Positions 2,066-64,000 of a stretch of 64,000 nt of DNA are shown here, one piece after another; the stretch's first letter is position 1, and each line of letters opens with the position of its first letter. The notes beneath the pieces were generated by a model. That model was given only the letters and a program-made list of their open reading frames with translations, had not been told where the DNA came from and did no database searches. The stretch comes from Microcystaceae cyanobacterium (GTDB taxonomy: Bacteria; Cyanobacteriota; Cyanobacteriia; Cyanobacteriales; Microcystaceae). The stretch lies in the NCBI GenBank assembly GCA_041746575.1, contig JBGTGT010000133.1, positions 42,848 to 106,847 of the forward strand, read 5' to 3'. Both the position numbers and the translations under genes were made by a program.

Positions 2066-2782
2066 TTAACTCCAAGTTAAAAAGTGTTCTTGTGTTAAGT
2101 ATTTAGGTCTAAGTGCTTTTTGAATATACATTTTTTGATGTTCCTCTTGAGTAAAAGGAGCATAGTTCTTGTACGATAAAAGTTTAGCTCCTTTGTCAAT
2201 AATACATTCTTTTTTACTTTCAAAATCACTAATTTTAAAAACTGTAGTGGTATCCACTTTTGCGCCCCCAAAGAAAGTTTCGGTTTCACCCTTTATCTTA
2301 TCATTGGTCTTAAAATCAAAATAACCTGAAGATGTTTCACCAAATTCATCTTCTAACACGCCCGAAAAATCTATTCTTTCAACTTTCCATGTCTCTGGAT
2401 CAAGCTTAGTTTTGTCTGTAAGAGGTATTTTTTTTGACATCCAAGGCTTTCCTTGACCATTGAAATTATCATATTCTTGATCAGCACTGTCACAATTGCT
2501 ATCTTGCCATGTAAATTTTATAAAACTATCTTTAGCACTAAATGGATCTTTCTTGATGCTAAAAACAGCATTTATAGTTACCATATCAAGTTTAGGGACT
2601 CCTTTTTTCTGGGCCTCATCTATACATCCATCTTTAGTAGCATCGTTCTCTAAGTAAGTTGAGTTTCCCATAAAACTAAATGAGCCATTGAGTGTTGTTG
2701 CTTGTGCAGGCTGAGCAATAATAGCGGATACAAGCAATGCAGAAGTGATATGAACAACGCAATTAATTGGAAAAACTTTCAT
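2066..2782 (-). CDS. Secreted protein of unknown function
   Basis: ATG at 2782 gives a signal peptide ending AQPAQA; preceded by the motif shared with the PEP-CTERM array. Confidence 0.75.
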   Translation of the reverse strand: MKVFPINCVVHITSALLVSAIIAQPAQATTLNGSFSFMGNSTYLENDATKDGCIDEAQKKGVPKLDMVTINAVFSIKKDPFSAKDSFIKFTWQDSNCDSADQEYDNFNGQGKPWMSKKIPLTDKTKLDPETWKVERIDFSGVLEDEFGETSSGYFDFKTNDKIKGETETFFGGAKVDTTTVFKISDFESKKECIIDKGAKLLSYKNYAPFTQEEHQKMYIQKALRPKYLTQEHFLTWS

Positions 2783-2833
2783 GGTAATTATTAAGAAAAA
2801 CAACTTGAGCTTTAACTTGATTGTTGACTACTC

Positions 2834-2894
2834 ACTAATTACTCAGAAGAAAAAACGTACTTTGTGACACTTCGACTAAAATTTGTTACAAAAC
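2834..2894 (-). promoter_or_regulatory. Conserved motif, copy 5
   Basis: Reverse complement reads TGTAACA-N14-TGTCACA-N16-CTGAGTAATTAGT. Confidence 0.75.
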
Positions 2895-50274: not shown

Positions 50275-53097
50275 TTAGTCAAAACACGCTCGACTTAATA
50301 ACAATTTTCCCTCAGGCGAACGATAAATTCCTTGCGGTTCAATGATTGGATCTCCTTTTTTCCAAGTGGGTTTATGATCAACGTTAGGGATTTCTTGAAC
50401 TGTCCCCGTGGGATAGGGAGCAATACCGGAGTCTCCCGGACGTGACGGCAATCCCCCTGCGCCTGTAATCGTAAGTTGTCCCCTTTGGGAGCTTTCTGGG
50501 ACAATACAACGATTAGAAATGAGTTTTTCGGGGTCAATCAAAGAATCTGGCAATTGAACAAGACTATTTTGAATAAACGTTAAATCGGGGATAAAAATTA
50601 CCCCTGCCACTGCGCCACTGGCATTAATGTCCACTCGCCCGTTATGATTGAGAATATTAGGGTCTGACACCGAAGAAGTGGGTTGATAACCATTGCCAAA
50701 GAAAACGGGGGTATTAAGTCGAATATCGCCCCCTCTGCCATCTCGTGCAAAAGCTAAAATATCACTGTCATTGAAATTGATGATAGAATTAGCAGTTAAA
50801 GTAATATTTCCCCCTCCTCCTTCACCAGTCTCTACATTTGTCCGAATATCACTATTTCCTGATAAACGAATATCTTGTGCGACGATGTTAATTTCTCCGC
50901 CAGATGCTTGATTGGCGTTGGCACTAATTAAGCCATCTTGAGCTGTGAATAAACCTGTAATATTAAGATTAATATTGCCAGCATTTCCTTCCCCTTGAGA
51001 AAGGGTTGTTATTTGACTATTATTATCTAAAGTCAGAGAATCAGCGTTAATTTGAATAAAGCCCCCTTTTCCATTTCTGCGAGTAGCTGCTGAAATTAAT
51101 GCACCATTAATTACGCTTAAATGGGAAGTTGTTAAATCAATATTACCAGCACTACCTTCACCTTGAGTTGTTGAAAAGATACCTGTTGTAAAATCTTGTA
51201 AGGTTAAGGTTATAGCATCAGAAGCATTAATCGTTAAATTTCCACCTTGTCCTTGGTTAAGAGTTGAAGTTGAGATAAATGCACCCGCATTAAGTTCAAG
51301 ACGTTTTGTAAGAATATTTAAGTTACCTGCATTACCGATACTAAGAGAACCAGTGGAAATTGAACTGGGAAAACCTTGTAAACTGACTAAATCAGATGCT
51401 TCAATGAAGATGGCACCTCCTTCACCTCCTTCTCCACGTACAGCTTCGGTTTCTGCTGTTATAACTCCTCTATTTCCTAAGAAAAGATTTTTTGTGTATA
51501 TATTAATGTTTCCTGCATCGCCTCTACCACTTGTATCAGTTGAAATAATACTAAAAGCAGGGTTATTAAAGTCAAAGGTATTAAGATTAATTGAGTCTGA
51601 TACTTGAATTATTATGTCTCCCCCTTCAGTAAACTCTGTCTCAGTAGAAACCAATCCACCATTAATAACATTAAAATTTCGAGCTTGAAGAAAAATATCT
51701 CCTCCTTTAGTTGCCGAAACATTGACTGCTCTTATAAATGCACTATCAATAGTAATATTATGATTAGCTTGAATTCTTATATCTCCTGACAGTCCTTGAC
51801 TATTAAACGACACATTACCAATGAAAGAAAATAACTGAGAGGTAAGATTATTTGTTTCAATGACTAAATTTCCACTATTGCCTATAATAGTTGTCTTACC
51901 AGATGTATCTTGGTTAATTGTTCCTGTAGAAAGAATCGAACCATTAACGAGATTAATTTCTTCTGCTTTAATTTGAATATCTTTGGCATCTCCATTGCTT
52001 AAGGTAAAAGAAATAATGGCAGATTCGTTAGTCAGATTGAGCGTTTTTCCTTGAATATTAATTTCTCCGTTACCACTTCCCAAAATGTCTGGATTAATTA
52101 AAGCAAGCTGGTTTAAATTAATATTTCCCTGACTCGCTTTCTCTATTCCTTCAAATCCTAATTGCCATCCATTGCTGACTGGCGTTAGACTGACATTTCC
52201 TCCGTTCATCACACTTCCTACTTCTATCCTGCCACCTAGTGCTGTAATAAAACCGCCCTCTAGATTAATATCTCCTCCTATCAAGGCTAAAGTGTTATTA
52301 GGTAATACATATAAGCTATCTATACTTTCTATTTCTCCTTCAGGACTTAAAGTCACAGGACGAGATAACAACTCAGTTAATATATTTTTGGTTAGATTAT
52401 TTACCTCTTCTGGCGTTGTATCTGGCGTAATACTTTGCAAAAATCTATTTAAAGGTTTATCTTTTCCTTGTACGGTAATGGGTTGAGAATTGGTTTGAGT
52501 AAATTGTAAACCGATGGGAGTGCTAACGGTTAAAAGCGGAGAAGATTGCGCTAAATTGGCACTGAAAATTGTGCCATCTGCAAAGTTAATTTGATTTGCT
52601 GTCGTTGCAATAAATGAGCCGCCTACATTTAAGCTTGCATTTTCACCAAATAAAATCCCATTCGGATTGAGAAAAAAGATATTCGCTGTTCCTAAATCTT
52701 GTAGCGATATCAAATTCGACAAGTTAATCTCTGAAAGATTGGGTAGATTCATCAACAGATTATTAATCGTGCTTTCTTTGATTAAGCCTAAAGTCCCCAA
52801 TAAATTAGAAGGATTATCTCCTGTTACCCGAATTAAGAGATTATTAACCCCATCAGGATTACTTAGAATAATCGTTTGTCCTTCAGAAATACTAAAATCT
52901 TGAAAACTCTGAAATAAATTTTCACCTCGGATTGCTCCCCCTTGAATTAATTGTAATAATTCCGAAAAAGGAATAACAATTGCACTTTCTGACCCTAAAC
53001 TTTGATCAGGAGTCACCTGTGCTAAGGTTAATGGATAATGAATTAACGAACTTCCTAAGAAACTGAGTAAACCTAATCCGATTTTAAAAGGAAACAT
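50275..53097 (-). CDS. Filamentous haemagglutinin-like (TPS domain) beta-helix exoprotein
   Basis: NLFQSFQDF, NPNGILFG, G.AGNI.I repeats, C-terminal TGAGGLP...IIEPQG. Confidence 0.9.
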   Translation of the reverse strand: MFPFKIGLGLLSFLGSSLIHYPLTLAQVTPDQSLGSESAIVIPFSELLQLIQGGAIRGENLFQSFQDFSISEGQTIILSNPDGVNNLLIRVTGDNPSNLLGTLGLIKESTINNLLMNLPNLSEINLSNLISLQDLGTANIFFLNPNGILFGENASLNVGGSFIATTANQINFADGTIFSANLAQSSPLLTVSTPIGLQFTQTNSQPITVQGKDKPLNRFLQSITPDTTPEEVNNLTKNILTELLSRPVTLSPEGEIESIDSLYVLPNNTLALIGGDINLEGGFITALGGRIEVGSVMNGGNVSLTPVSNGWQLGFEGIEKASQGNINLNQLALINPDILGSGNGEINIQGKTLNLTNESAIISFTLSNGDAKDIQIKAEEINLVNGSILSTGTINQDTSGKTTIIGNSGNLVIETNNLTSQLFSFIGNVSFNSQGLSGDIRIQANHNITIDSAFIRAVNVSATKGGDIFLQARNFNVINGGLVSTETEFTEGGDIIIQVSDSINLNTFDFNNPAFSIISTDTSGRGDAGNINIYTKNLFLGNRGVITAETEAVRGEGGEGGAIFIEASDLVSLQGFPSSISTGSLSIGNAGNLNILTKRLELNAGAFISTSTLNQGQGGNLTINASDAITLTLQDFTTGIFSTTQGEGSAGNIDLTTSHLSVINGALISAATRRNGKGGFIQINADSLTLDNNSQITTLSQGEGNAGNINLNITGLFTAQDGLISANANQASGGEINIVAQDIRLSGNSDIRTNVETGEGGGGNITLTANSIINFNDSDILAFARDGRGGDIRLNTPVFFGNGYQPTSSVSDPNILNHNGRVDINASGAVAGVIFIPDLTFIQNSLVQLPDSLIDPEKLISNRCIVPESSQRGQLTITGAGGLPSRPGDSGIAPYPTGTVQEIPNVDHKPTWKKGDPIIEPQGIYRSPEGKLLLSRACFD

Positions 53098-53333: not shown

Positions 53334-54236
53334 TTATGAAGATAATGTAACTTTATTTTTTTGGGTAAGAATTACATTAACTCCTAAGACTCCCATACTA
53401 ATTAATCCTAACAAATAAGAAGGCTCAGGAACAGAACACATTTCTACGGGTTGAGGAAGGGTAGGATAGGCTGGAAAGTTGGGTATAGGTTCAGTAAATT
53501 CCGGAGGCGGACTATTCGGGGGTTGATTAGGTGGCGGATTAGGAATTGTTGTGGTTAAAGCAGAAATTGAGGCAAACCAATAAGGAATAATAGGTGGATT
53601 TCCATTCGCACTATAATAAGAAAAACCAGCCAAAGTTCCTGATATAATTTGCCCACCTCCAAAAAATACTAGCGGATCGCTTCCCGTAAATTCCAATGTT
53701 TTATAATCGCCTGTGGGAGGAGCAATGCTTCCCATCCCTGTAAAAGATAATGCTTGTGCAGGTAATAAAGGTTGACTGGCAAATCCATCTGACACAAAAC
53801 TTGTGTTAGTGCTTGCAGGAGGAACAGATGGCATAACAATATTGAAAGCAGGTAACAAAGCAGATTCAATTAAGTTCAAACTCGCAGGGGATTCCCCCAT
53901 TGAACTTAGAAGGGGGGTGTCAACTAACAGATTAATATTCAGGGTGGCATACCCCGAATCAAAATTATATAAAATTACGTTCGTTTGGCTGGTATCTAGA
54001 GTAAACGATATGGGACCTGATGGCACAATTCCCATCCCTAAATCAATATCAATACTGGGTGCGCTTCCCATATAACTGCTTATCTCCATCACAGAAACCC
54101 CTGAAACCACGAATTTACCGTTAGCTGTTACTGTTCCTTCTGGACAGGCGGCTTTGGCAACAGGGGTAAATACCCACAAGTTCAAACAAAGAATATTTAA
54201 ACAAGCCGGTATGATTTTATGAGAACGTTGATACAT
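53334..54236 (-). CDS. PEP-CTERM-like surface protein
   Basis: Signal peptide (AKA), Pro-rich linker, VPEPS + TM helix + basic tail. Confidence 0.85.
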   Translation of the reverse strand: MYQRSHKIIPACLNILCLNLWVFTPVAKAACPEGTVTANGKFVVSGVSVMEISSYMGSAPSIDIDLGMGIVPSGPISFTLDTSQTNVILYNFDSGYATLNINLLVDTPLLSSMGESPASLNLIESALLPAFNIVMPSVPPASTNTSFVSDGFASQPLLPAQALSFTGMGSIAPPTGDYKTLEFTGSDPLVFFGGGQIISGTLAGFSYYSANGNPPIIPYWFASISALTTTIPNPPPNQPPNSPPPEFTEPIPNFPAYPTLPQPVEMCSVPEPSYLLGLISMGVLGVNVILTQKNKVTLSS

Positions 54237-54387: not shown

Positions 54388-57030
54388 GTGTTTAATCAAG
54401 CTTGGCGTCGTTCTTTTTTGGTTCTTATCTTTGTAAGTAGTCTAGTTTTGTCTTTAGGATGGGGACAGATTACTTTATCGGACAAAATAAACTTTAATCA
54501 TCCTGTCATCGCTCAGACAACGGACGTGAATCAAGGGGTGAACGAGGGTATTGAACAGTATAAACGAGAAAACTATACAGAAGCCATAAAAATATGGCAA
54601 GAAATTCTATATGCTTCTTTAAATTCTCAAGAAAAGCAAATTGTTCTCGAAAATATAGCTAGAGCCTATCAAAAATTAGGTCAAACGAAAAAAGCTTTGG
54701 AATCTTGGTCAAAAGTAGCAGAATATGCCAAAAATGACGAAAGTAAAGTTAAACTAGGTCAAATTTTAACCGAACAAGCCCAACTTTATCTTAATTTAGG
54801 TCAACCGCAAACAGCGATCGCCCTTTTATGTCAGTCCACAAATGAAAAAACGTGTCAGCTAAATACAGCATTAGCGATTGCCCGTAATAACCAAGATTTG
54901 CCGGGAGAAGTCGCCGCCTTAGGAACTTTAGCTGAAGCTTTCCGTCTCAGTGGCAAATATGACCAAAGTATTCGCACCCTAGAAACCGCTTTATCGCTGT
55001 CACCCTCCCTTTATCAGGCTTCTCTAAAACAGAGTTTGGGCAATGCTCTCACAGCCAGAGGACAATTGTGGAAAATCAGAGCAGAATCCGACCAAGAACA
55101 GGGTATTTTCCAGTCCGACGCTTTTAAAACCAATGCGATCGCTGATTATCAACAAGCGGAAATTAATTTTCGTTCAAGTTTACAGTTAACGGAAGATCCA
55201 TTAAATAAACTAGAAAATTTATTAAACTTAATTCGATTATCGTATTATTCACAGAAATTTCAGTTAATTTCAACTGAAAAAAGTGAAATTGACCTACAAA
55301 AAGCCTTAAACCTGCTAGAGAGTGTACCCCCAACGGCGACAACTGTTTATGCCAGTATTGATTTAGCTACGCTACCCGACTTTTCATTGCCGCTGGAAAA
55401 TCCGTTAGCACAATGTCCATCAAAATGGCAACTTTCTGTAACAAAAAGACAAGATATCTTAAAAAATGCCCTAAATATTTCTAAAACCCTAAACAATCCC
55501 CGCAGCGAGTCCTTTGCGTTGGGTGCATTGGGTCATTTTTATGAATGCCAAGAAGACCTAAAAACAGCTTTAACGATTACTCAGCAAGCGATTTTAGTTG
55601 CAAACCAAAGCCTATCGGCTCAAGACAGCTTATATCTTTGGGAATGGCAAAAAGGTCGAATTTTAAACACTCAGGGACTCGTAAAAGGGGCAATTAACGC
55701 TTACCAAGACGCTTACAATACCCTTGAAACCATTCGCAGTGAATTATTAACGGCCGAAAGAGATGTACAATTTGACTTCAGAGATAGTATTGAGCCAATT
55801 TATCGTCAATTAACAGAATTACAACTTGAATTGACAGATTCTACCGATTTATCACCACAAGAACGAAAACAATACCTAGCACAAGCATTAACGGTTACCG
55901 ACAGTTTAAGATTGGCAGAATTGCAAAATTATCTCGGAAATGATTGTTTTTTGCGAATTGATTCCCCTATTTCAAAATCCTTATCTTCCCTGACAGATAC
56001 TGCAACCATTAATTTATTGATTTTTGCAGATAAAACAGCAATTATCTTAACCTTGCCCGATGAAAACAGCAGAATTCATTGGATTCAGCAGAATCGTGCT
56101 AATATACTTGCTATCTTACGTCAGTTTCGTCAGCAATTGCAAGAAGGACAATTGGCATTGGGTGACTACGATATAACCTTATCTAAACAGCTTTACGAGT
56201 GGATTATTCAACCTTTTGCGTCTGATCTAACAGAAAATAACATTAAAACGCTCATTTTCATTAAAGATAGTCTTTTTCGTACTATTCCGATGGCCGCCTT
56301 ACACGATGGCAAACAGTTTTTGATTGAAAAATATGCGATTGCCACCACACCCAGTTTAGCCTTAACTGCTATCGAAGAAAGCACATTTTCTAAGAATAAA
56401 GCCTTAATTTTAGGTGTTACCGAAGAAAGTAAGATCGATGGTCAAATTTTCCCTGCTTTAAGCAATATTTCCCTAGAAATTGCCACTGTTTCTCAGCAAT
56501 TTCCGAACCATCAACCCCTAATCAACGCACAGTTTAACGCCAACACCTTGGCGGAAGCCCTAGATAACGCCGATTATCCTATTATTCATATTGCCACTCA
56601 TGCACAATTTGGGGCAATTGCGGACGATACTTTTCTGGTTGCCGGAAATAATGCCAAAATTACGATTAATAATTTAGAACTTATTTTAAATCGTCTCAGA
56701 GAAGGTTCTGACACCGTTGAACTTTTAACCTTAACCGCCTGTGAAACAGCTGAAGGAAATGAACGATCTGCGCTAGGATTAGCAGGAGTAGCAATACAAG
56801 CCGGTGTTAAAAGTGCGATCGCCTCTCTATGGTCAGTATCGGATGAATCCACTCTACAACTCGTCTCAGCTTTCTATGAAAATTTAGTGAATTCAGGGGT
56901 TAGTAAAGCAGAAGCCTTGAGACAAGCTCAAATCAAACTCATTCAAGCCAAACAATATCCTGAAATTAATAATCAATATAACAATCCTTTTTATTGGGCT
57001 GCTTTTACCCTCATTGGCAATTGGTTATGA
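54388..57030 (+). CDS. TPR-CHAT (caspase/HetF-like) protease
   Basis: N-terminal hydrophobic segment, TPRs, IHIATHAQF (His738), LTLTACETA (Cys785), ASLWSVSD, PFYWAAF. Confidence 0.93.
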   Translation: MFNQAWRRSFLVLIFVSSLVLSLGWGQITLSDKINFNHPVIAQTTDVNQGVNEGIEQYKRENYTEAIKIWQEILYASLNSQEKQIVLENIARAYQKLGQTKKALESWSKVAEYAKNDESKVKLGQILTEQAQLYLNLGQPQTAIALLCQSTNEKTCQLNTALAIARNNQDLPGEVAALGTLAEAFRLSGKYDQSIRTLETALSLSPSLYQASLKQSLGNALTARGQLWKIRAESDQEQGIFQSDAFKTNAIADYQQAEINFRSSLQLTEDPLNKLENLLNLIRLSYYSQKFQLISTEKSEIDLQKALNLLESVPPTATTVYASIDLATLPDFSLPLENPLAQCPSKWQLSVTKRQDILKNALNISKTLNNPRSESFALGALGHFYECQEDLKTALTITQQAILVANQSLSAQDSLYLWEWQKGRILNTQGLVKGAINAYQDAYNTLETIRSELLTAERDVQFDFRDSIEPIYRQLTELQLELTDSTDLSPQERKQYLAQALTVTDSLRLAELQNYLGNDCFLRIDSPISKSLSSLTDTATINLLIFADKTAIILTLPDENSRIHWIQQNRANILAILRQFRQQLQEGQLALGDYDITLSKQLYEWIIQPFASDLTENNIKTLIFIKDSLFRTIPMAALHDGKQFLIEKYAIATTPSLALTAIEESTFSKNKALILGVTEESKIDGQIFPALSNISLEIATVSQQFPNHQPLINAQFNANTLAEALDNADYPIIHIATHAQFGAIADDTFLVAGNNAKITINNLELILNRLREGSDTVELLTLTACETAEGNERSALGLAGVAIQAGVKSAIASLWSVSDESTLQLVSAFYENLVNSGVSKAEALRQAQIKLIQAKQYPEINNQYNNPFYWAAFTLIGNWL

Positions 57031-57070: not shown

Positions 57071-57439
57071 CTAAGCCTGACACGATTGGCAAAACTGTCG
57101 TAAACGATGTAAAAACAAAGGTTGATGATTGACCAGTTGAAAACAATATTCTTCTACCATAGCCCAAATGGATGCATCTCTTAATTGCTTATTGGCAATA
57201 GTATCACTTAGGGACTTAATTTTTTCTTGAAGTTGTGCATCAGATTGTAACATATCCGCCAACACTCTTTGACTGAAATGAACAATAAAACGGCGATGTC
57301 TCAAATTTTGCTGAAATCGGCGAGCAATGGGAGGATAAGCTAATAATAAGATGGCTAAGCGACAAATCAATTTCTGATAGCTTTGGGTATCGCTTCGATA
57401 GAGATATTTTTTTTGAAGGATACGATCATGATAATTCAT
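57071..57439 (-). CDS. Hypothetical protein
   Basis: 122-aa ORF divergent from the sigma gene; no recognised motif. Confidence 0.55.
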   Translation of the reverse strand: MNYHDRILQKKYLYRSDTQSYQKLICRLAILLLAYPPIARRFQQNLRHRRFIVHFSQRVLADMLQSDAQLQEKIKSLSDTIANKQLRDASIWAMVEEYCFQLVNHQPLFLHRLRQFCQSCQA

Positions 57440-57825: not shown

Positions 57826-58455
57826 GTGGCTTTTTTAGCCACAAGACAAACAATGAATCCTAATATGAGCTTACAACAATTGGTTTTAGACGCACAGCAA
57901 TCTCTTCCTAAAACAAGCGTTCGACAGCAAGCTTTAGAGAAACTTATGCAAAAACTCATGCCAGAAATCTCCTCCCACTATCGCTATCAAACGGCTCAGC
58001 TCAATTCAGAAATGACTGAGGAAGCTATGCAAAATCTTTGGCTTTATGTCTGTGAAAAAATCGAAACGTATGACACCAATAAAGGGACAGTGATGGCATG
58101 GATTAATAACCTCTTGAAATGGCGTATTCTCGATCAAAAGCGGCTTTTTCAGCAAACAATAGGCAAAACAACTTGTATAGAACCTGATAGCTTAGTTCAG
58201 TCTCAAGATAAACCTTCATTAACGGATAGTCTGCGACAGATTATCGAAGAAGATCAGGATCAATTGTTTCAGTATCATTATTTTAATAATAATCCTCAGC
58301 TTAATTTTCAACAGTTAGCACAGTTAAGGTTATCTGGAATTTCTTGGCAGGAAATTGCTGAAAAGTATAAGGTATCTGAGGTCAGTCTCAGACAATTTTG
58401 GTGTCGTGCCGTCAAACGTTTTGCTCCTATTCTTAAGCAAAGTTTACAAGAATAA
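57826..58455 (+). CDS. ECF-like sigma-70 family factor
   Basis: Region-2-like EEAMQNLWLYVCEKIETYD..KG.VMAWIN..LKWR; region-4 HTH SWQEIAEKYKVS; true start may be ATG 57853. Confidence 0.8.
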   Translation: MAFLATRQTMNPNMSLQQLVLDAQQSLPKTSVRQQALEKLMQKLMPEISSHYRYQTAQLNSEMTEEAMQNLWLYVCEKIETYDTNKGTVMAWINNLLKWRILDQKRLFQQTIGKTTCIEPDSLVQSQDKPSLTDSLRQIIEEDQDQLFQYHYFNNNPQLNFQQLAQLRLSGISWQEIAEKYKVSEVSLRQFWCRAVKRFAPILKQSLQE

Positions 58456-58476: not shown

Positions 58477-58938
58477 TTAATGCTTTCCCTTGTCTAAATA
58501 ACTCATAAATTCCTTCATCGGATGCAATTGTTCGAGTGGAATTTTTTTGCTATCAACTCTTTTCAGGAATCCTCGTAAGGTGGCTTGTCTCAAGAACTCA
58601 TTAATCTCTACGATAATATAAGCGATTCTTTCTTCCCATACTTCAGGAGGAATATACACAAAATTGTGCTGAGGGAAAATAGGACGGCATTCAATTTTTC
58701 CCCAATTTTTAAGGTTTAAGTCGGCTACATCTAAAAGCGTTTGCATGACGCAATCCCAAGCATCGCTTGTCGGTAAATCGGTTTCTATTTTCCATGATTG
58801 AAAATAAAGAAAGACAGCATATACAGCCAATGTGTTGAAATAGACAATATTTGATTGTTTTGATGAAGATTGCTGTTGCTGAAATTGTATCGCTTGTTGA
58901 TAAGCTTCATTGGGTAAGTTGATTTTGACAGAAGTCAT
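58477..58938 (-). CDS. Short DUF1822-family protein
   Basis: VYFNTLAVYAV, DVADL, GKIECRP, IPPEVWEERIAY. Confidence 0.85.
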   Translation of the reverse strand: MTSVKINLPNEAYQQAIQFQQQQSSSKQSNIVYFNTLAVYAVFLYFQSWKIETDLPTSDAWDCVMQTLLDVADLNLKNWGKIECRPIFPQHNFVYIPPEVWEERIAYIIVEINEFLRQATLRGFLKRVDSKKIPLEQLHPMKEFMSYLDKGKH

Positions 58939-59035: not shown

Positions 59036-59100
59036 GAGTTTTGTAACAAGTTTTAGGAGAGGTGTCACAAAGTGGGTTCATGCTTCCGAGTAATAAGTAG
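59036..59100 (+). promoter_or_regulatory. Conserved motif, copy 1
   Basis: TGTAACA(59042)-N14-TGTCACA(59063)-N16-CCGAGTAAT(59086). Confidence 0.8.
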
Positions 59101-59164
59101 AGGAAAAAAGTAACTGCAGAAATTACTCTTCTTCTAGATAAAAATCTAACTTATGGAGTAAAAA

Positions 59165-59907
59165 ATGAAAAAATATTCTAATCAGCTTTTATCTTTTTAC
59201 ATAATAGTTTTTGGGCCTCTTTTGTCTTTAATAGCCATTATTCAGCTTGCTCAAGCAGCTGATTTTAAATTTGAATTTGATGCAGCCAAAAATCCACCAC
59301 CAGAAATTCCTCAAGGAGCTACAGTTGGAGCAATTGTTGATGTTTTTTTTGAGCAAAAAGTCGCTTTTGGATCAACAGGTTTTCCTAACGGAGCTAATTT
59401 TGAAAATCAGTCCTCAAAGACAATTCAAGGTTTCTGGATTAGTTTGAAAGAAGAAAATATAAAAGCAGGTGATGCCATTAGTCAAATGTCTAATCTAATA
59501 ATGGTACGGGGACATTATTTGAAAGACCTTACTTTTTTATAGATCCTAATACCAAGAAAGCAACTAAAATTGCCTTTGTTGTTCAACAAGGCATGGGAAT
59601 CGCACCCAATCAATTTCACTTTGAACAGATTACAATGACCCCTAATGATGCGCAGATATTTATGGGACAAGCTTTCGATGATCGAGACAAGCTACTAGAA
59701 CATCTTAACGACATGGGAGCGAAGCAACTGTCAGGATGTACTCCGCCGCAAACAGAAGAATCAGGGCAAAAGTCTTTATCTTTAAATGCGACAGATAACT
59801 CTAACATTTGCCGTATACCTGAATCTTCGCCTATCACAGGACTTTTAACCTTTGGTTTGGTGGGATTAACATCTATTGTGTTTAATAGAAAACGTTTATC
59901 AAGTTGA
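59165..59907 (+). pseudogene. PEP-CTERM-like protein frameshifted by a 5-bp duplication
   Basis: Signal peptide (AQA) in ORF 59165-59542, IPES + TM + RKR in ORF 59593-59907; removing one TCTAA at 59489-59498 joins them into 245 aa. Confidence 0.85.
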
Positions 59908-59950
59908 AGACGAGCAATTTCTTAATTTTCCAAAAGACAAACCTCATAAA

Positions 59951-59986
59951 ACCACGTTTAAATCATAACGACGTGGTCATTTTTTT
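59951..59986 (+). terminator. Repeated hairpin plus T run, copy A
   Basis: ACCACGT...ACGTGGT followed by a T run. Confidence 0.65.
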
Positions 59987-60006
59987 ATTTATCAATGATT
60001 TGTATT

Positions 60007-60071
60007 GAGTTTTATAACAGTTTTAGGTTTAGGCGTCACAAAGTCGGTGGATGCTTCCGAGTAATAGCTAG
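60007..60071 (+). promoter_or_regulatory. Conserved motif, copy 2
   Basis: TATAACA-N14-CGTCACA-N16-CCGAGTAAT. Confidence 0.78.
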
Positions 60072-60137
60072 AAGAGACAAGATTGATTGTTGATCTTTTC
60101 TATTGTTTTTGCCAATTAGGTAAGAGAGTTAATTAAC

Positions 60138-60995
60138 ATGAAAACCCTTCAATATATTCCTGTAAAAAATCGAGAAAACTTTTTCAAAAACCTATTCTAT
60201 ATATTAGGAGCGAGTTATGTCACTCTATTAGGATTAACCCAACCAGCATATAGTCTTGATCCAGAGGGGGAATTTGGTAATTTCACTAGCAAAGAAGCGT
60301 ATAAAATCTGTAGAGAGAAAAAAATTGGTAATATTGCTGAATGTATTGCTGCTGCACTGTATGTCGATCCTCCCTCTGCTGAATATACAGACATTAATCT
60401 AATCTTAAATTATGATTCCTCGAAGTGGACTTTTCGTCCAGATTTAAGTGGTCCATTATGTAGTTTCGCTGTCGGGGGAGATTGTCCTCCTCCGAATGCT
60501 GCTATTGGAACTTTCCCCTTACTGGATCATACAGTGACTTTGGGAACGCCTCTACCGGCTTCAACACTAAATTTTAATGATGATCCTATTAATGGATTGG
60601 TTAAGGTTAATTATTCACTGGCTACTCCAGTATTAATTACTGAAAATCAAAACTTTCTCAGTCTTTATTTTGATGCTAAAAAACCTTTTTCACCAGATAG
60701 CGCTACAGTTACCTATTATAGTGAATCCGGTGACTATGATTTTTCTGAACAAAGTTCTGTTTGCACAACGACGGAGTTTGTTTCCAGTTGTGCTAGTACG
60801 ACACCTGTAGCAGGACTAGATATTGATGTGACTTCTATTCCTGAATCTTTCTCTCCCTTGCCGCTAATTGCGCTTGGTATCCTCGGCTCAGGTGCAATTG
60901 TCAAACGTCATTTAAACTCTACTAAAACAGCTAAACAACAAAGGGAAAGAAATTCTTCTGATACTCACCAACAAGAAGTCAGCAAAGTGAGTTAA
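60138..60995 (+). CDS. PEP-CTERM-like surface protein (Cys-containing passenger)
   Basis: Signal peptide (PAYS); IPES + TM helix + KRHLNS. Confidence 0.85.
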   Translation: MKTLQYIPVKNRENFFKNLFYILGASYVTLLGLTQPAYSLDPEGEFGNFTSKEAYKICREKKIGNIAECIAAALYVDPPSAEYTDINLILNYDSSKWTFRPDLSGPLCSFAVGGDCPPPNAAIGTFPLLDHTVTLGTPLPASTLNFNDDPINGLVKVNYSLATPVLITENQNFLSLYFDAKKPFSPDSATVTYYSESGDYDFSEQSSVCTTTEFVSSCASTTPVAGLDIDVTSIPESFSPLPLIALGILGSGAIVKRHLNSTKTAKQQRERNSSDTHQQEVSKVS

Positions 60996-61074
60996 ATCGC
61001 TTCTGAATTAAGTTCAGTGAAAAAGGATTGTTAAGGCTTAATTTTCCGAAAAACAAGATAACCTTCATAAACCA
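60973..61074 (+). repeat. 102-bp direct repeat, copy 1
   Basis: Identical by eye to 62361-62462. Confidence 0.92.
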
Positions 61075-61105
61075 CGTTTATCTCTTAACAGCGTGGTTAT
61101 TTTTT
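61070..61105 (+). terminator. Repeated hairpin plus T run, copy B
   Basis: AACCACG...CGTGGTT followed by a T run. Confidence 0.7.
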
Positions 61106-61125
61106 ACTTATCAATCTTTTAATTA

Positions 61126-61190
61126 AGTTTTGTAACAAGTTTTAGGAGCGGTGTCACAAAGTAAGTTCATGCTTCCGAGTAATAAGTAGA
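61126..61190 (+). promoter_or_regulatory. Conserved motif, copy 3
   Basis: TGTAACA(61131)-N14-TGTCACA(61152)-N16-CCGAGTAAT(61175). Confidence 0.8.
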
Positions 61191-61260
61191 AGGAATTAAA
61201 TGAATTTAATCATAACGTTTCTTCTATTTACCATTAGAAAAATCAATAAGAGGAGCAATC

Positions 61261-62361
61261 ATGCGTCACTTTACTTATGCTAAAAACCAGCAAAAACTTT
61301 TACCAAAATGGGTTAAGCTTACTTTTTGGTTAAATAGTTTAACGATTGCATTATATTGTTCAGCTACTCCACCCGCAACAGCCGGAACAATCACACAGAT
61401 AAGTCAAGAAAATACATTCTCCATTAAAAATGGCCAAGTCCAGACGACAACTACTTTTGAATTTGACGCTCATCCTGATGATAAAGAAACAGTTAATCGA
61501 GCATTATCATTACTACCTAAGCGCGGTAATACTTCCACGACAGTTAAAAGTAGAGAATTCATCGATGACCATAGAACAAAAGGTAGAGGAGTAGCTGTAT
61601 ACGGGATTACTAAACAAAATAAAAAATTTACTTTGAGTGAACAAGTATCCGCATCGATTACGCCTAATTGTCCAAGAAAAGCACTAGATTGTGGTCCTGT
61701 CTCGATGAAAACAACAACAAAAAATAAAACAACAATTACGGCATTAAGCAATGAAGTTAAAGCAAATAATCTTCCTCTTTTAAGTAATGATGTTGTACCG
61801 CAAGTATTAGCAGAAATGTCTATAGATGTCTTATTAAGTAAAGGAACAAAAGTCAGTTTATTTGGTCAAGAATCAAGTCAAAAAAGTTTAGGAGTAAACG
61901 ACGATAGTAATCTATTGTACGAATTCGATTTAAGTGTTGTTGAAGACGAAATTGTACTTAATCATCAACGGTTAGCTCCACAAGTAACAATTGGTACAAG
62001 CAATGATTATTTTTCCCTGACTTTTGATAGTGATGCCCAAACCATTCAGAATCGGATAGCTGACGCTTTTTCTTATAACTCAGCTAAAAATACATGGGTT
62101 GTTAGTGAGGATACTAATCTGTTTTCGGTTTCATTAACTCCGCTACAAGATATAGAATCCTTCGATTTGTTAGGAGAATCATCTCAAGAGAAAGATGCGA
62201 TTGAACCTCCATCTAGTGATGTTCAGTCTATTCCTGAATCATCTTCTGTATTTGGCTTCTTAATGATAGGCGCACTTGGCACAGTTTCAATTATGAAGCG
62301 TCATCTGAATTCATCCCAGTCCTCTAACCCAGAAACAACTGAAATTAATCGAAATAGATAA
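61261..62361 (+). CDS. PEP-CTERM-like surface protein
   Basis: GAGGAG RBS; signal peptide (ATA); IPES + TM helix + KRHLNS. Confidence 0.87.
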   Translation: MRHFTYAKNQQKLLPKWVKLTFWLNSLTIALYCSATPPATAGTITQISQENTFSIKNGQVQTTTTFEFDAHPDDKETVNRALSLLPKRGNTSTTVKSREFIDDHRTKGRGVAVYGITKQNKKFTLSEQVSASITPNCPRKALDCGPVSMKTTTKNKTTITALSNEVKANNLPLLSNDVVPQVLAEMSIDVLLSKGTKVSLFGQESSQKSLGVNDDSNLLYEFDLSVVEDEIVLNHQRLAPQVTIGTSNDYFSLTFDSDAQTIQNRIADAFSYNSAKNTWVVSEDTNLFSVSLTPLQDIESFDLLGESSQEKDAIEPPSSDVQSIPESSSVFGFLMIGALGTVSIMKRHLNSSQSSNPETTEINRNR

Positions 62362-62462
62362 AGAAGTCAGCAAAGTGAGTTAAATCGCTTCTGAATTAAG
62401 TTCAGTGAAAAAGGATTGTTAAGGCTTAATTTTCCGAAAAACAAGATAACCTTCATAAACCA
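62361..62462 (+). repeat. 102-bp direct repeat, copy 2
   Basis: Identical by eye to 60973-61074. Confidence 0.92.
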
Positions 62463-62494
62463 TGTTTATCAGTAAAAAGCATGGTTCTTTTTTT
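62458..62494 (+). terminator. Repeated hairpin plus T run, copy C
   Basis: AACCATG...CATGGTT followed by a T run; compensatory change relative to copy B. Confidence 0.72.
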
Positions 62495-62513
62495 ATTTAT
62501 CAATCATTTAATT

Positions 62514-62578
62514 GAGTTTTGTAACAACTTTAAGCTCAGTGTCACAAAGGAAGTTGATTCTTCCGATTAATTAGTAGA
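62514..62578 (+). promoter_or_regulatory. Conserved motif, copy 4
   Basis: TGTAACA-N13-TGTCACA(62540)-N16-CCGATTAAT. Confidence 0.75.
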
Positions 62579-62603
62579 GAGACATCATTAGGAGTTATTA
62601 ATT

Positions 62604-63670: not shown

Positions 63671-64000
63671 TTGACATACTCCCGCCGCTAATTGCAGATA
63701 CGCAATCTAACGGGGGATTCTTAAGCTCACACTTAAGAGTTTCTGCTTCACAGACTCTTGACTAGACATTACTGCCCCCGTCAGACCATCTCCACAGACA
63801 TTTTCTAATACGCTATGCCCTAGCGCGTCTTGATGCATCGCATATTCATATTCTTCTACACCACGATTTCTGATGACTTGTGCTGCTGCCACATCTCTGT
63901 GGGTTTTATAGCTGCATTCAGGACAACTATGTTCTCTGACATCAAGGGTTTTCTTGCCAGTATGAAAACCACAATTAGGACATATCTGAGACGTAAAATT
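63671..64000 (-). mobile_element. tnpB: IS200/IS605 element right end with TnpB C-terminus (CDS stops at 63707; continues beyond window)
   Basis: TSQICPNCG...CPECSYKTHRDVAAA (Zn finger plus RuvC-III Asp); subterminal hairpin ending ...TATGTCAA at 63671. Confidence 0.88.

Follow-up and report, generated by a model that had tools for sequence, protein, structure and literature searches.

A repeated motif beside a divergent sigma factor gene

Which factor reads a two-box motif that recurs in front of genes for exported proteins, and is it encoded next door? The question is raised by 64,000 nucleotides of a Microcystaceae cyanobacterium genome (GenBank assembly GCA_041746575.1, contig JBGTGT010000133.1, positions 42,848 to 106,847 of the forward strand), the whole of which is referred to here as the window. 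Four copies of the motif lie in an array of PEP-CTERM-like genes and a fifth stands apart, all at the places reported by a first-pass annotation of the DNA. The motif is probably the promoter of the neighbouring divergent extracytoplasmic function (ECF)-like sigma factor, which would turn on a group of exported proteins and peptides, would be kept inactive by the DUF1822 protein encoded beside it and may be helped by an RpaB-type activator. That annotation had already proposed a fixed-spacer promoter read by the adjacent sigma; support comes from a family-wide motif upstream of sigma homologues, from agreement of the -35 letters within genomes and from their correlation with the sigma recognition helix.

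The copies in the window, with predicted transcription starts, are:

59039..59102 (+): promoter copy 1; upstream box TTTTGTAACA at 59039-59048, -35 GTCACA at 59064-59069, -10 GAG at 59088, predicted +1 at 59099
60010..60073 (+): promoter copy 2; upstream box TTTTATAACA, -35 GTCACA starting at 60035, predicted +1 at 60070
61128..61191 (+): promoter copy 3; -35 GTCACA starting at 61153, predicted +1 at 61188
62517..62579 (+): promoter copy 4; -35 GTCACA starting at 62541, -10 GAT, predicted +1 at 62576
2830..2893 (-): promoter copy 5; -35 GTCACA at 2868-2863, predicted +1 at 2833

The motif is real: its boxes keep a fixed spacing around a variable spacer. As first described, GTCACA and CCGA (CTGA in copy 5) are separated by 16 nt in all five copies and the sequence between them varies. 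The upstream box, TTTTGTAACA except in copy 2, precedes G[TC]GTCACA by 13, 13, 13 and 12 nt in the array copies (14/13 nt before [TC]GTCACA), again as annotated. Judged from the letters, the start would be the A of TAGA; numbered from there, GTCACA would occupy -35 to -30 and the G of GAG -11, and leaders would be 28-73 nt long. Each predicted start is a pyrimidine-purine step followed by G; start sites favour such a step, and G is preferred at +2. A promoter search found none of the SigA type on the + strand at the four array sites, and there was no Rfam match.

Scanning the 4.2-Mb genome with a matrix built from the five copies, a check that the first-pass annotation had suggested, gave nine sites at 30.6-43.1 bits, clear of both the next-best site (18.0 bits) and the best hit in the reversed genome (21.0 bits). 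The four further sites lie on contigs C98 (two), C81 and C88. All nine copies are intergenic and directed into a gene, and TGTCACA is present in 6 of them. Mean pairwise identity over the nine is 1.0 in the -35 box, 0.91 in the -10 box, 0.50 in the inner spacer and 0.30 in the flanks. The spacer value is above background, and the nine copies therefore probably descend from one promoter. In aligned DNA contigs the boxes are without strain differences, the few that are listed being cross-alignments of other copies.

Part of the array arose by duplication, because copies 3 and 4 have a duplicated upstream block of 102 nt in common (60973..61074 (+), repeated at about 62361-62462). A hairpin and T-run, recognized by eye (the loops are too long for a terminator scan), follow this block and precede copies 2-4. 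The direct repeat (60973-62462) flanks the gene at 61261, and in one contig of run X4 position 62360 connects back to 60973; this junction may reflect copy-number variation of the unit or an assembly artefact.

Genes downstream of the motif

Each of the nine copies stands before a gene, or a group of genes, for exported proteins or peptides. Those in the window are:

59165..59907 (+): PEP-CTERM gene, one gene split by a frameshift into 59165-59542 and 59593-59907
60138..60995 (+): PEP-CTERM protein, 285 aa
61261..62361 (+): PEP-CTERM protein, 366 aa
62604..62957 (+): 117-aa exported protein whose tail, read directly from the sequence, is PEP-CTERM-like but degenerate
2066..2782 (-): 239-aa protein behind copy 5, with a signal-peptide-like start, no PEP-CTERM tail and no Pfam match

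Elsewhere in the genome, the C81 site leads into a PEP-CTERM gene and the C88 site into a gene for a 167-aa RTX-repeat protein. One C98 site (L240, 123907-132576) precedes a gene for a 2889-aa RTX-repeat protein with a weak Zn-phospholipase C match, followed by a PEP-CTERM gene. Behind the other (L239, 97000-106500) runs a series encoding a transglutaminase-like protein, which we take to be of the lasso B2 type, a PEP-CTERM protein, a 230-aa precursor resembling nitrile hydratase (NHase) alpha, a DUF4135/LANC lanthionine synthetase and an ABC transporter. This last run is an odd mixed cluster for ribosomally synthesized and post-translationally modified peptides, a lanthipeptide-type operon led by the motif.

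The first-pass annotation had placed the motif before every PEP-CTERM-like gene and taken it for a counterpart of the proteobacterial PEP-CTERM box, and in both respects it went too far. The motif is missing before the PEP-CTERM gene at 53334-54236 (-), which adjoins the TPR-CHAT gene, and the product of the gene that follows copy 5 is without a PEP-CTERM tail. The motif is not a general PEP-CTERM box, since a site precedes only 6 of the genome's 43 PEP-CTERM genes, in one case from a distance of 8.8 kb with the giant protein in between; this census used a sequence pattern rather than a hidden Markov model (50 matches, of which 7 were taken out by eye). Targets in other genomes, described below, are likewise mixed.

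A probable promoter architecture that recurs in the order

Upstream of sigma homologues of other cyanobacteria a common architecture recurs: ATGTAAAGTTTTGTAACA, about 12-14 nt, (GCAT/CCGT/GCGT/GCAG)AAAA, 16 nt, GA(G/T)A, 6-7 nt and TAGA. Its -35 is mostly GCATAAAA or CCGTAAAA, and GCAGAAAA also occurs. By comparison of sequences, the local motif is a dialect of this family-wide promoter (upstream box, -35 ending in AAA, N16, GAG, TAGA). A family matrix placed a sense site within 300 nt upstream of 46/95 sigma homologues and of 0/95 in reversed or shuffled controls, a result that is partly circular because the matrix was trained on these same regions (L139, L142, L146 and loci with <300 nt upstream are outside the 95). 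When the matrix was applied to this genome with its -35 letters removed and with no training site from this genome, the only hits above 22 bits were 7 of the 9 local copies, against 1 control hit.

With the -35 letters left free, a strict pattern is found in 107 of 401 genomes of the order (reversed pattern, 38). The first-pass annotation had suggested looking for co-occurrence with the sigma/DUF1822 pair, and the pattern is enriched where the sigma is found, being present in 78/196 sigma-positive against 28/204 sigma-negative genomes (control pattern, 21 vs 16), counts that come from lists typed by hand, include kin that are not independent and had only 7 sigma candidates scored per genome. 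No exact copy of the local motif turned up in 40 relatives, its frequency in 400 genomes of the order is what chance would give, and a wider genome collection yielded four unrelated single hits. The local dialect is thus private, whereas the architecture recurs.

The sigma cassette is itself among the family targets. The others encode two-partner secretion (TPS) proteins, RTX proteins, DUF4114/DUF4347 giant proteins, subtilases, CAP proteins, M10 and trypsin proteases, PEP-CTERM proteins and peptide precursors, with a glycosyltransferase, CheB/CheR, two Cas10 genes and an adenylate kinase as exceptions. The family promoter upstream of type III CRISPR cas10 in G327 and G315 (L254, L257) hints at a defence output. 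In several genomes the motif also leads a conserved small open reading frame (76-83 aa) that is divergent from the sigma gene and has no Pfam match (L071:10709-10960, L073:8235-8462).

Start-site tables gave no match in the Trichodesmium supplements, no matching geometry in the Fischerella candidate table and no match in the Nostoc punctiforme promoter table, whose unexplained 'second motif' is a different sequence. Npun_ER021 (plasmid pNPUN05), the one checked of five indirectly SigJ-dependent N. punctiforme PEP-CTERM genes, lacks the motif.

The -35 letters follow the recognition helix

As read in the genome sequences, the -35 letters are consistent within each genome, vary from one genome to another and go with the recognition helix of the sigma factor. 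With the five letters kept out of site scoring and with non-sigma and chance-hit loci omitted, sites of one genome differed at 0.43 of 5 letters, against 1.76 after shuffling (minimum 1.12 in 500; 91 sites, 29 genomes); excluding the present genome gave 0.44 vs 1.53. Spacer letters served as a control and showed no such agreement (3.44 mismatches within genomes, 3.50 shuffled). Unlinked sites matched the cassette-linked -35 letters of their own genome in 27 of 35 cases from 18 genomes (null mean 9, maximum 16 of 1000).

The table of helices and boxes has 54 rows, related to one another. Asp-bearing helices (LSDF, LGDF, ISDF) go with CCGTA/ACGTA in 8/8 and the VSRF helix with GCAGA in 5/5. The two LRQF sigmas, that of this genome and that of G248, have GTCAC/GTAAC at -35 and GAGT at -10, so that the odd helix here is paired with the odd -35 GTCACAAA. 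A -35 that is specific to its genome is easier to reconcile with a private, fast-evolving sigma than with SigG, a HetZ-like factor or a housekeeping sigma.

The sigma factor and its reduced cassette

The following features of the window belong to the sigma locus:

57826..58455 (+): divergent ECF-like sigma factor of 209 aa, encoded once in the genome; sigma2 and sigma4 present, recognition helix EVSLRQFWCR
58477..58938 (-): 153-aa protein limited to the N-terminal domain of DUF1822 (model positions 4-151 of 306); predicted anti-sigma
54388..57030 (+): TPR-CHAT protein, a usual cassette neighbour
50275..53097 (-): TPS (filamentous haemagglutinin-like) exoprotein, a usual cassette neighbour

The best fold matches of the 209-aa model are sigma factors (SigK 4nqw, Z 10.1, root-mean-square deviation 2.2, 85 residues aligned). 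It aligns to sigma2 of SigK/SigC and to sigma4 domains; sigma3 is absent, as in ECF (group 4) factors, and the protein ends with the sigma4 helix, without a C-terminal extension. Of 86 family members, 48 match TIGR02937 at E<=0.001. With this single query, homologues (about 30-41% identical) were found in 144/401 genomes of the order, and with a profile at E<=1e-30 in 197/401, but in only 5/89 genomes of the organism's own family. Among the 400 other genomes of the order no relative exceeds about 41% identity; two proteins 60% identical were found outside the 401-genome set, and a metagenome scan with the sigma returned two irrelevant loci.

Relatives keep the order sigma - DUF1822 - CHAT-CHASE2 - DUF928, with TPR-CHAT and TPS genes nearby. 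DUF1822 follows sigma on the same strand in 90/97 loci. In this genome the DUF1822 gene adjoins the sigma gene but converges on it and is shortened, a point that the first-pass annotation passed over, as it did the missing promoter copy of the sigma gene. The CHAT-CHASE2 receptor was not found here with a profile of 13 N-terminal halves (best domain E 0.0015, only CHASE2 parts matching) in a genome that is 99.8% complete by markers, in 134 contigs. To judge from the gene content, the cassette is reduced in this genome: it has no promoter of its own, no CHAT-CHASE2 that could be found, and a predicted anti-sigma cut to its binding domain. Clusters of TPS, DUF928 and CHASE2 genes at C15:448-7371 and C123:82718-96123 are without sigma, DUF1822 or a CHAT-fused receptor. 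Named plasmids of Fischerella NIES-4106 and Tolypothrix PCC 7712 (L284:18331, L284:8914, L285:8917) carry a sigma-DUF1822 pair and the motif with -35 GGATAAAA, and offer culturable test systems.

DUF1822 as a predicted anti-sigma factor

Modelling supports, and does not show, an anti-sigma role for DUF1822. The predicted complex of the intact sigma-DUF1822 pair of G190 scored 0.84 and the best of 3 controls 0.00, from 86-row alignments; the score mark is reached by 116/157 solved and 2/215 mismatched pairs. Contact agreement between runs was >=82% and partner pLDDT (predicted local distance difference test) >=82. The predicted interface joins DUF1822 residues 8-155 to sigma2 and the sigma4 recognition helix, and this part of DUF1822 is the portion kept in the shortened copy of the present genome. 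The DUF1822 model consists of an alpha/beta part and a beta-sandwich. No solved relative was found by sequence or by Foldseek at E<=0.001, which is no proof of a new fold; memory of a like complex is therefore not evident.

The upstream box as a possible RpaB site

The family upstream box is TGTAAA-GT-TTTGTAAC, whose reverse complement, GTTACAAA-AC-TTTACAT, reads as an HLR1-type direct repeat. TGTAACA, which the first-pass annotation had offered as a second binding site of the sigma, corresponds in relatives to half of this box, and the sequence comparison does not support a second sigma site. HLR1 consists of two 8-nt repeats (G/T)TTACA(T/A)(T/A) with N2 between them and is bound by RpaB, whose activating sites are centred at -66 to -45 (Riediger 2019, PMC6525291). 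The centre lies at about -58 to -62 from the predicted start overall and at -58 to -60 in 56/57 family sites, inside the activating window, and 26/57 sites match HLR1 with <=1 mismatch; the near half belonged to the search seed, the far half came out by itself. Among the nine local copies 7 have a perfect near half; elsewhere this genome holds 11 perfect HLR1 (control, 0). Going by these matches, RpaB may plausibly act on the family promoters, but its input is in doubt, or has been altered, in this genome, where the far half is degenerate although perfect HLR1 exist at other places. The family sites thus share with those of PMC6525291 the direct repeat and its position; what sets them apart is a box that lies on the reverse strand in every case and is combined with an ECF-like promoter.

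Proposed mechanism

In the mechanism that we favour, the promoter would consist of a -35 GTCACAAA (in the family GCATAAAA, CCGTAAAA or GCAGAAAA), 16 nt, a -10 GAG(T/A) and a start at the A of TAGA, with an HLR1-type box centred near -60 at which an RpaB-type activator may help. The N-terminal domain of DUF1822 would clamp sigma2 and the sigma4 recognition helix. In intact cassettes the CHASE2-CHAT (caspase-like) membrane protein would free the sigma factor by proteolysis, and the freed sigma would amplify itself and transcribe exoprotein genes. In the present genome, sigma and promoters would have drifted together into a private dialect that drives the tandem PEP-CTERM array, two RTX proteins and the lanthipeptide-type operon.

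A wider picture is tentative, and we rather doubt that it holds as a whole. A widespread cyanobacterial sigma class may run an exoprotein regulon from ECF-type promoters coupled to an activator, with RpaB (light/redox) and an anti-sigma released by a caspase as the two inputs of an AND gate and with a -35 code legible from the helix. This genome would then be a case of the code rewritten: receptor and autoregulation would be gone, the anti-sigma trimmed to its binding domain, and upstream box, -35, -10 and helix would have moved jointly into a private dialect that drives the PEP-CTERM array.

Weighing the alternatives

Several observations weigh against the assignment of the motif to the neighbouring sigma factor. 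No copy lies upstream of the sigma gene in this genome. The protein scores 26.7 bits against a curated sigma70-ECF cut-off of 42.9, and Foldseek gave no match for its model at E<=0.001. Among sigma-positive genomes 118/196 are without the strict pattern. G261, G232, G169 and G274 (the G248 genus) carry the GTAACAAA type and no LRQF-type sigma was found in them, nor any sigma at all in G274; G254 has two motif copies and no sigma that could be found, and G225, G194 and G108 have only weak homologues. The sigma phylogeny, a quick tree, does not join the two LRQF sigmas, both of which are long branches, so that few events underlie the link between helix and box. In all nine local copies the far HLR1 half departs from the consensus at 1-4 positions, mostly in a shared TCAA. 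The complex was folded for the intact G190 pair rather than for the pair of this genome, and proteolytic release is an analogy with Csx29/Csx30/CASP-sigma (PMC10028731), together with a proposal in PMC8195603.

The main rival, which we consider unlikely, is that another, commoner sigma (SigG, HetZ-related or group 2/3) reads the motif with RpaB, the DUF1822-linked sigma gene being simply one target. Genomes with the motif in which the sigma was not found speak for it, as does the lack of autoregulation of the local sigma. This genome also has a canonical ECF (C56), seven larger sigma-70 matches and a full-length HetZ-related protein (C28), and HetZ is described as acting as a sigma factor (PMC13712970). 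A conserved sigma, however, does not explain -35 letters that shift between genomes along with the cassette's own promoter and helix. Motif and sigma moreover co-occur, and the local -35 is not above chance in 400 other genomes, in parallel with the lack of close relatives of the sigma there.

It is also improbable that the sites are relics or operators, the sigma-like protein being inactive as a sigma here, or a plain activator or repressor binding the boxes, with transcription starting elsewhere. The reduced cassette, the long branch of the sigma, one frameshifted target and one degenerate target would suit such decay. Against it, the two boxes have stayed nearly invariant over nine sites in which spacers and flanks have drifted, the frames of both the sigma and the anti-sigma domain are open, and two boxes, 16 nt and a pyrimidine-purine start fit a promoter.

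That the copies are a residue of gene duplication or mark a mobile cassette boundary, without regulatory selection, as the block common to copies 3 and 4 and the raised spacer identity might suggest, is very unlikely indeed: spacers are far less conserved than boxes, five dispersed copies (on other contigs or 56 kb off) precede unrelated genes, each local copy is intergenic and points into a gene, and the same architecture with unrelated spacers in the 107 genomes extends the contrast of box and spacer across genomes, by which this explanation is largely refuted.

Relation to known systems

The motif alignment has no invariant columns of the sigma54 type (-24 GG / -12 GC), and cyanobacteria are not known to have sigma54. 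The proteobacterial PEP-CTERM box with sigma54 and PrsR (Haft 2006, PMC1569441) likewise combines an activator box with an alternative-sigma promoter before single-gene PEP-CTERM units. It differs in serving 99/167 genes, with an enhancer about 63 nt away and -24/-12 elements, against 6/43 genes, sigma70-type -35/-10 elements, a box at about -60 and many non-PEP-CTERM targets here. That study reports that no such motif was found in Anabaena and that further motifs were expected; the present one would be one of these missing non-proteobacterial PEP-CTERM promoter motifs, for a subset of the genes only.

The first-pass annotation had also likened the motif to the ECF41 promoter, TGTCACA-n16-CGTC, whose sigma has a C-terminal extension of about 100 aa (Wecke 2012, PMC3426412). 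TGTCACA (in 6/9 local copies) and the 16-nt spacer are shared, and the likeness ends there: the -10 is CCGAG (CGTC in 0/9), the extension is lacking, the anti-sigma candidate is a separate protein and the regulon comprises many genes. Since other -35 sequences prevail in the family, the resemblance is a case of convergence.

EACC2-caspase neighbourhoods that include an ECF sigma gene and DUF1822 have been described, and a transcriptional output proposed for them (Kaur, Iyer, Burroughs, Aravind 2021, PMC8195603). As in the relatives studied here, sigma, DUF1822 and CHAT-CHASE2 form one cassette; unlike there, the CHAT-CHASE2 gene was not found in this genome. The accessible part of PMC8195603 gives no promoter, regulon or anti-sigma role and calls DUF1822 a TPR protein, in contrast to the alpha/beta and beta-sandwich model. 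In the type III-E system of Csx29 (TPR-CHAT), Csx30 and CASP-sigma (PMC10028731), a CHAT protease is likewise linked to a sigma inhibitor and a sigma, the same logic as proposed here. Its trigger is target RNA on Cas7-11, whereas the candidate here is a CHASE2 membrane sensor. The likeness is one of logic: it does not imply homology of DUF1822 and Csx30, and cleavage of DUF1822 is hypothetical.

An ECF sigma with an anti-sigma and a dedicated promoter is thus a known kind of system, and the cassette is already catalogued (PMC8195603). New here are the private dialect, the agreement of -35 letters within genomes, the HLR1 reading, the predicted anti-sigma interface and the reduced cassette. In the literature searched, including the accessible part of a survey of cyanobacterial sigma factors (PMC11119718), the promoter, regulon, HLR1 coupling and DUF1822 function are not described; subscription papers were mostly outside the search, and a prior description is possible.

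If the assignment is correct, it would supply a promoter, a regulon and an anti-sigma for an uncharacterised sigma family present in about half of the order's sampled genomes (197/401), and a function for DUF1822. Such a regulon would bring together surface adhesins, proteases, peptide precursors and proteins of the RTX, TPS and PEP-CTERM kinds. Coupling of an ECF-type promoter to a response-regulator box at a fixed position would make surface remodelling dependent on light or redox state, and natural -35 dialects would be ready orthogonal sigma-promoter pairs for cyanobacterial engineering.

Other features of the window

Close to the sigma gene, at 57071-57439 (-), lies a 122-aa fragment of HetZ-related protein 2. 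Similar short stand-alone HetZ-related fragments are found on C54 and C66, divergent from large regulators, in addition to the full-length gene on C28. A transposase-like frame end at 63707-64000, presumably a zinc-ribbon part, runs off the contig end.

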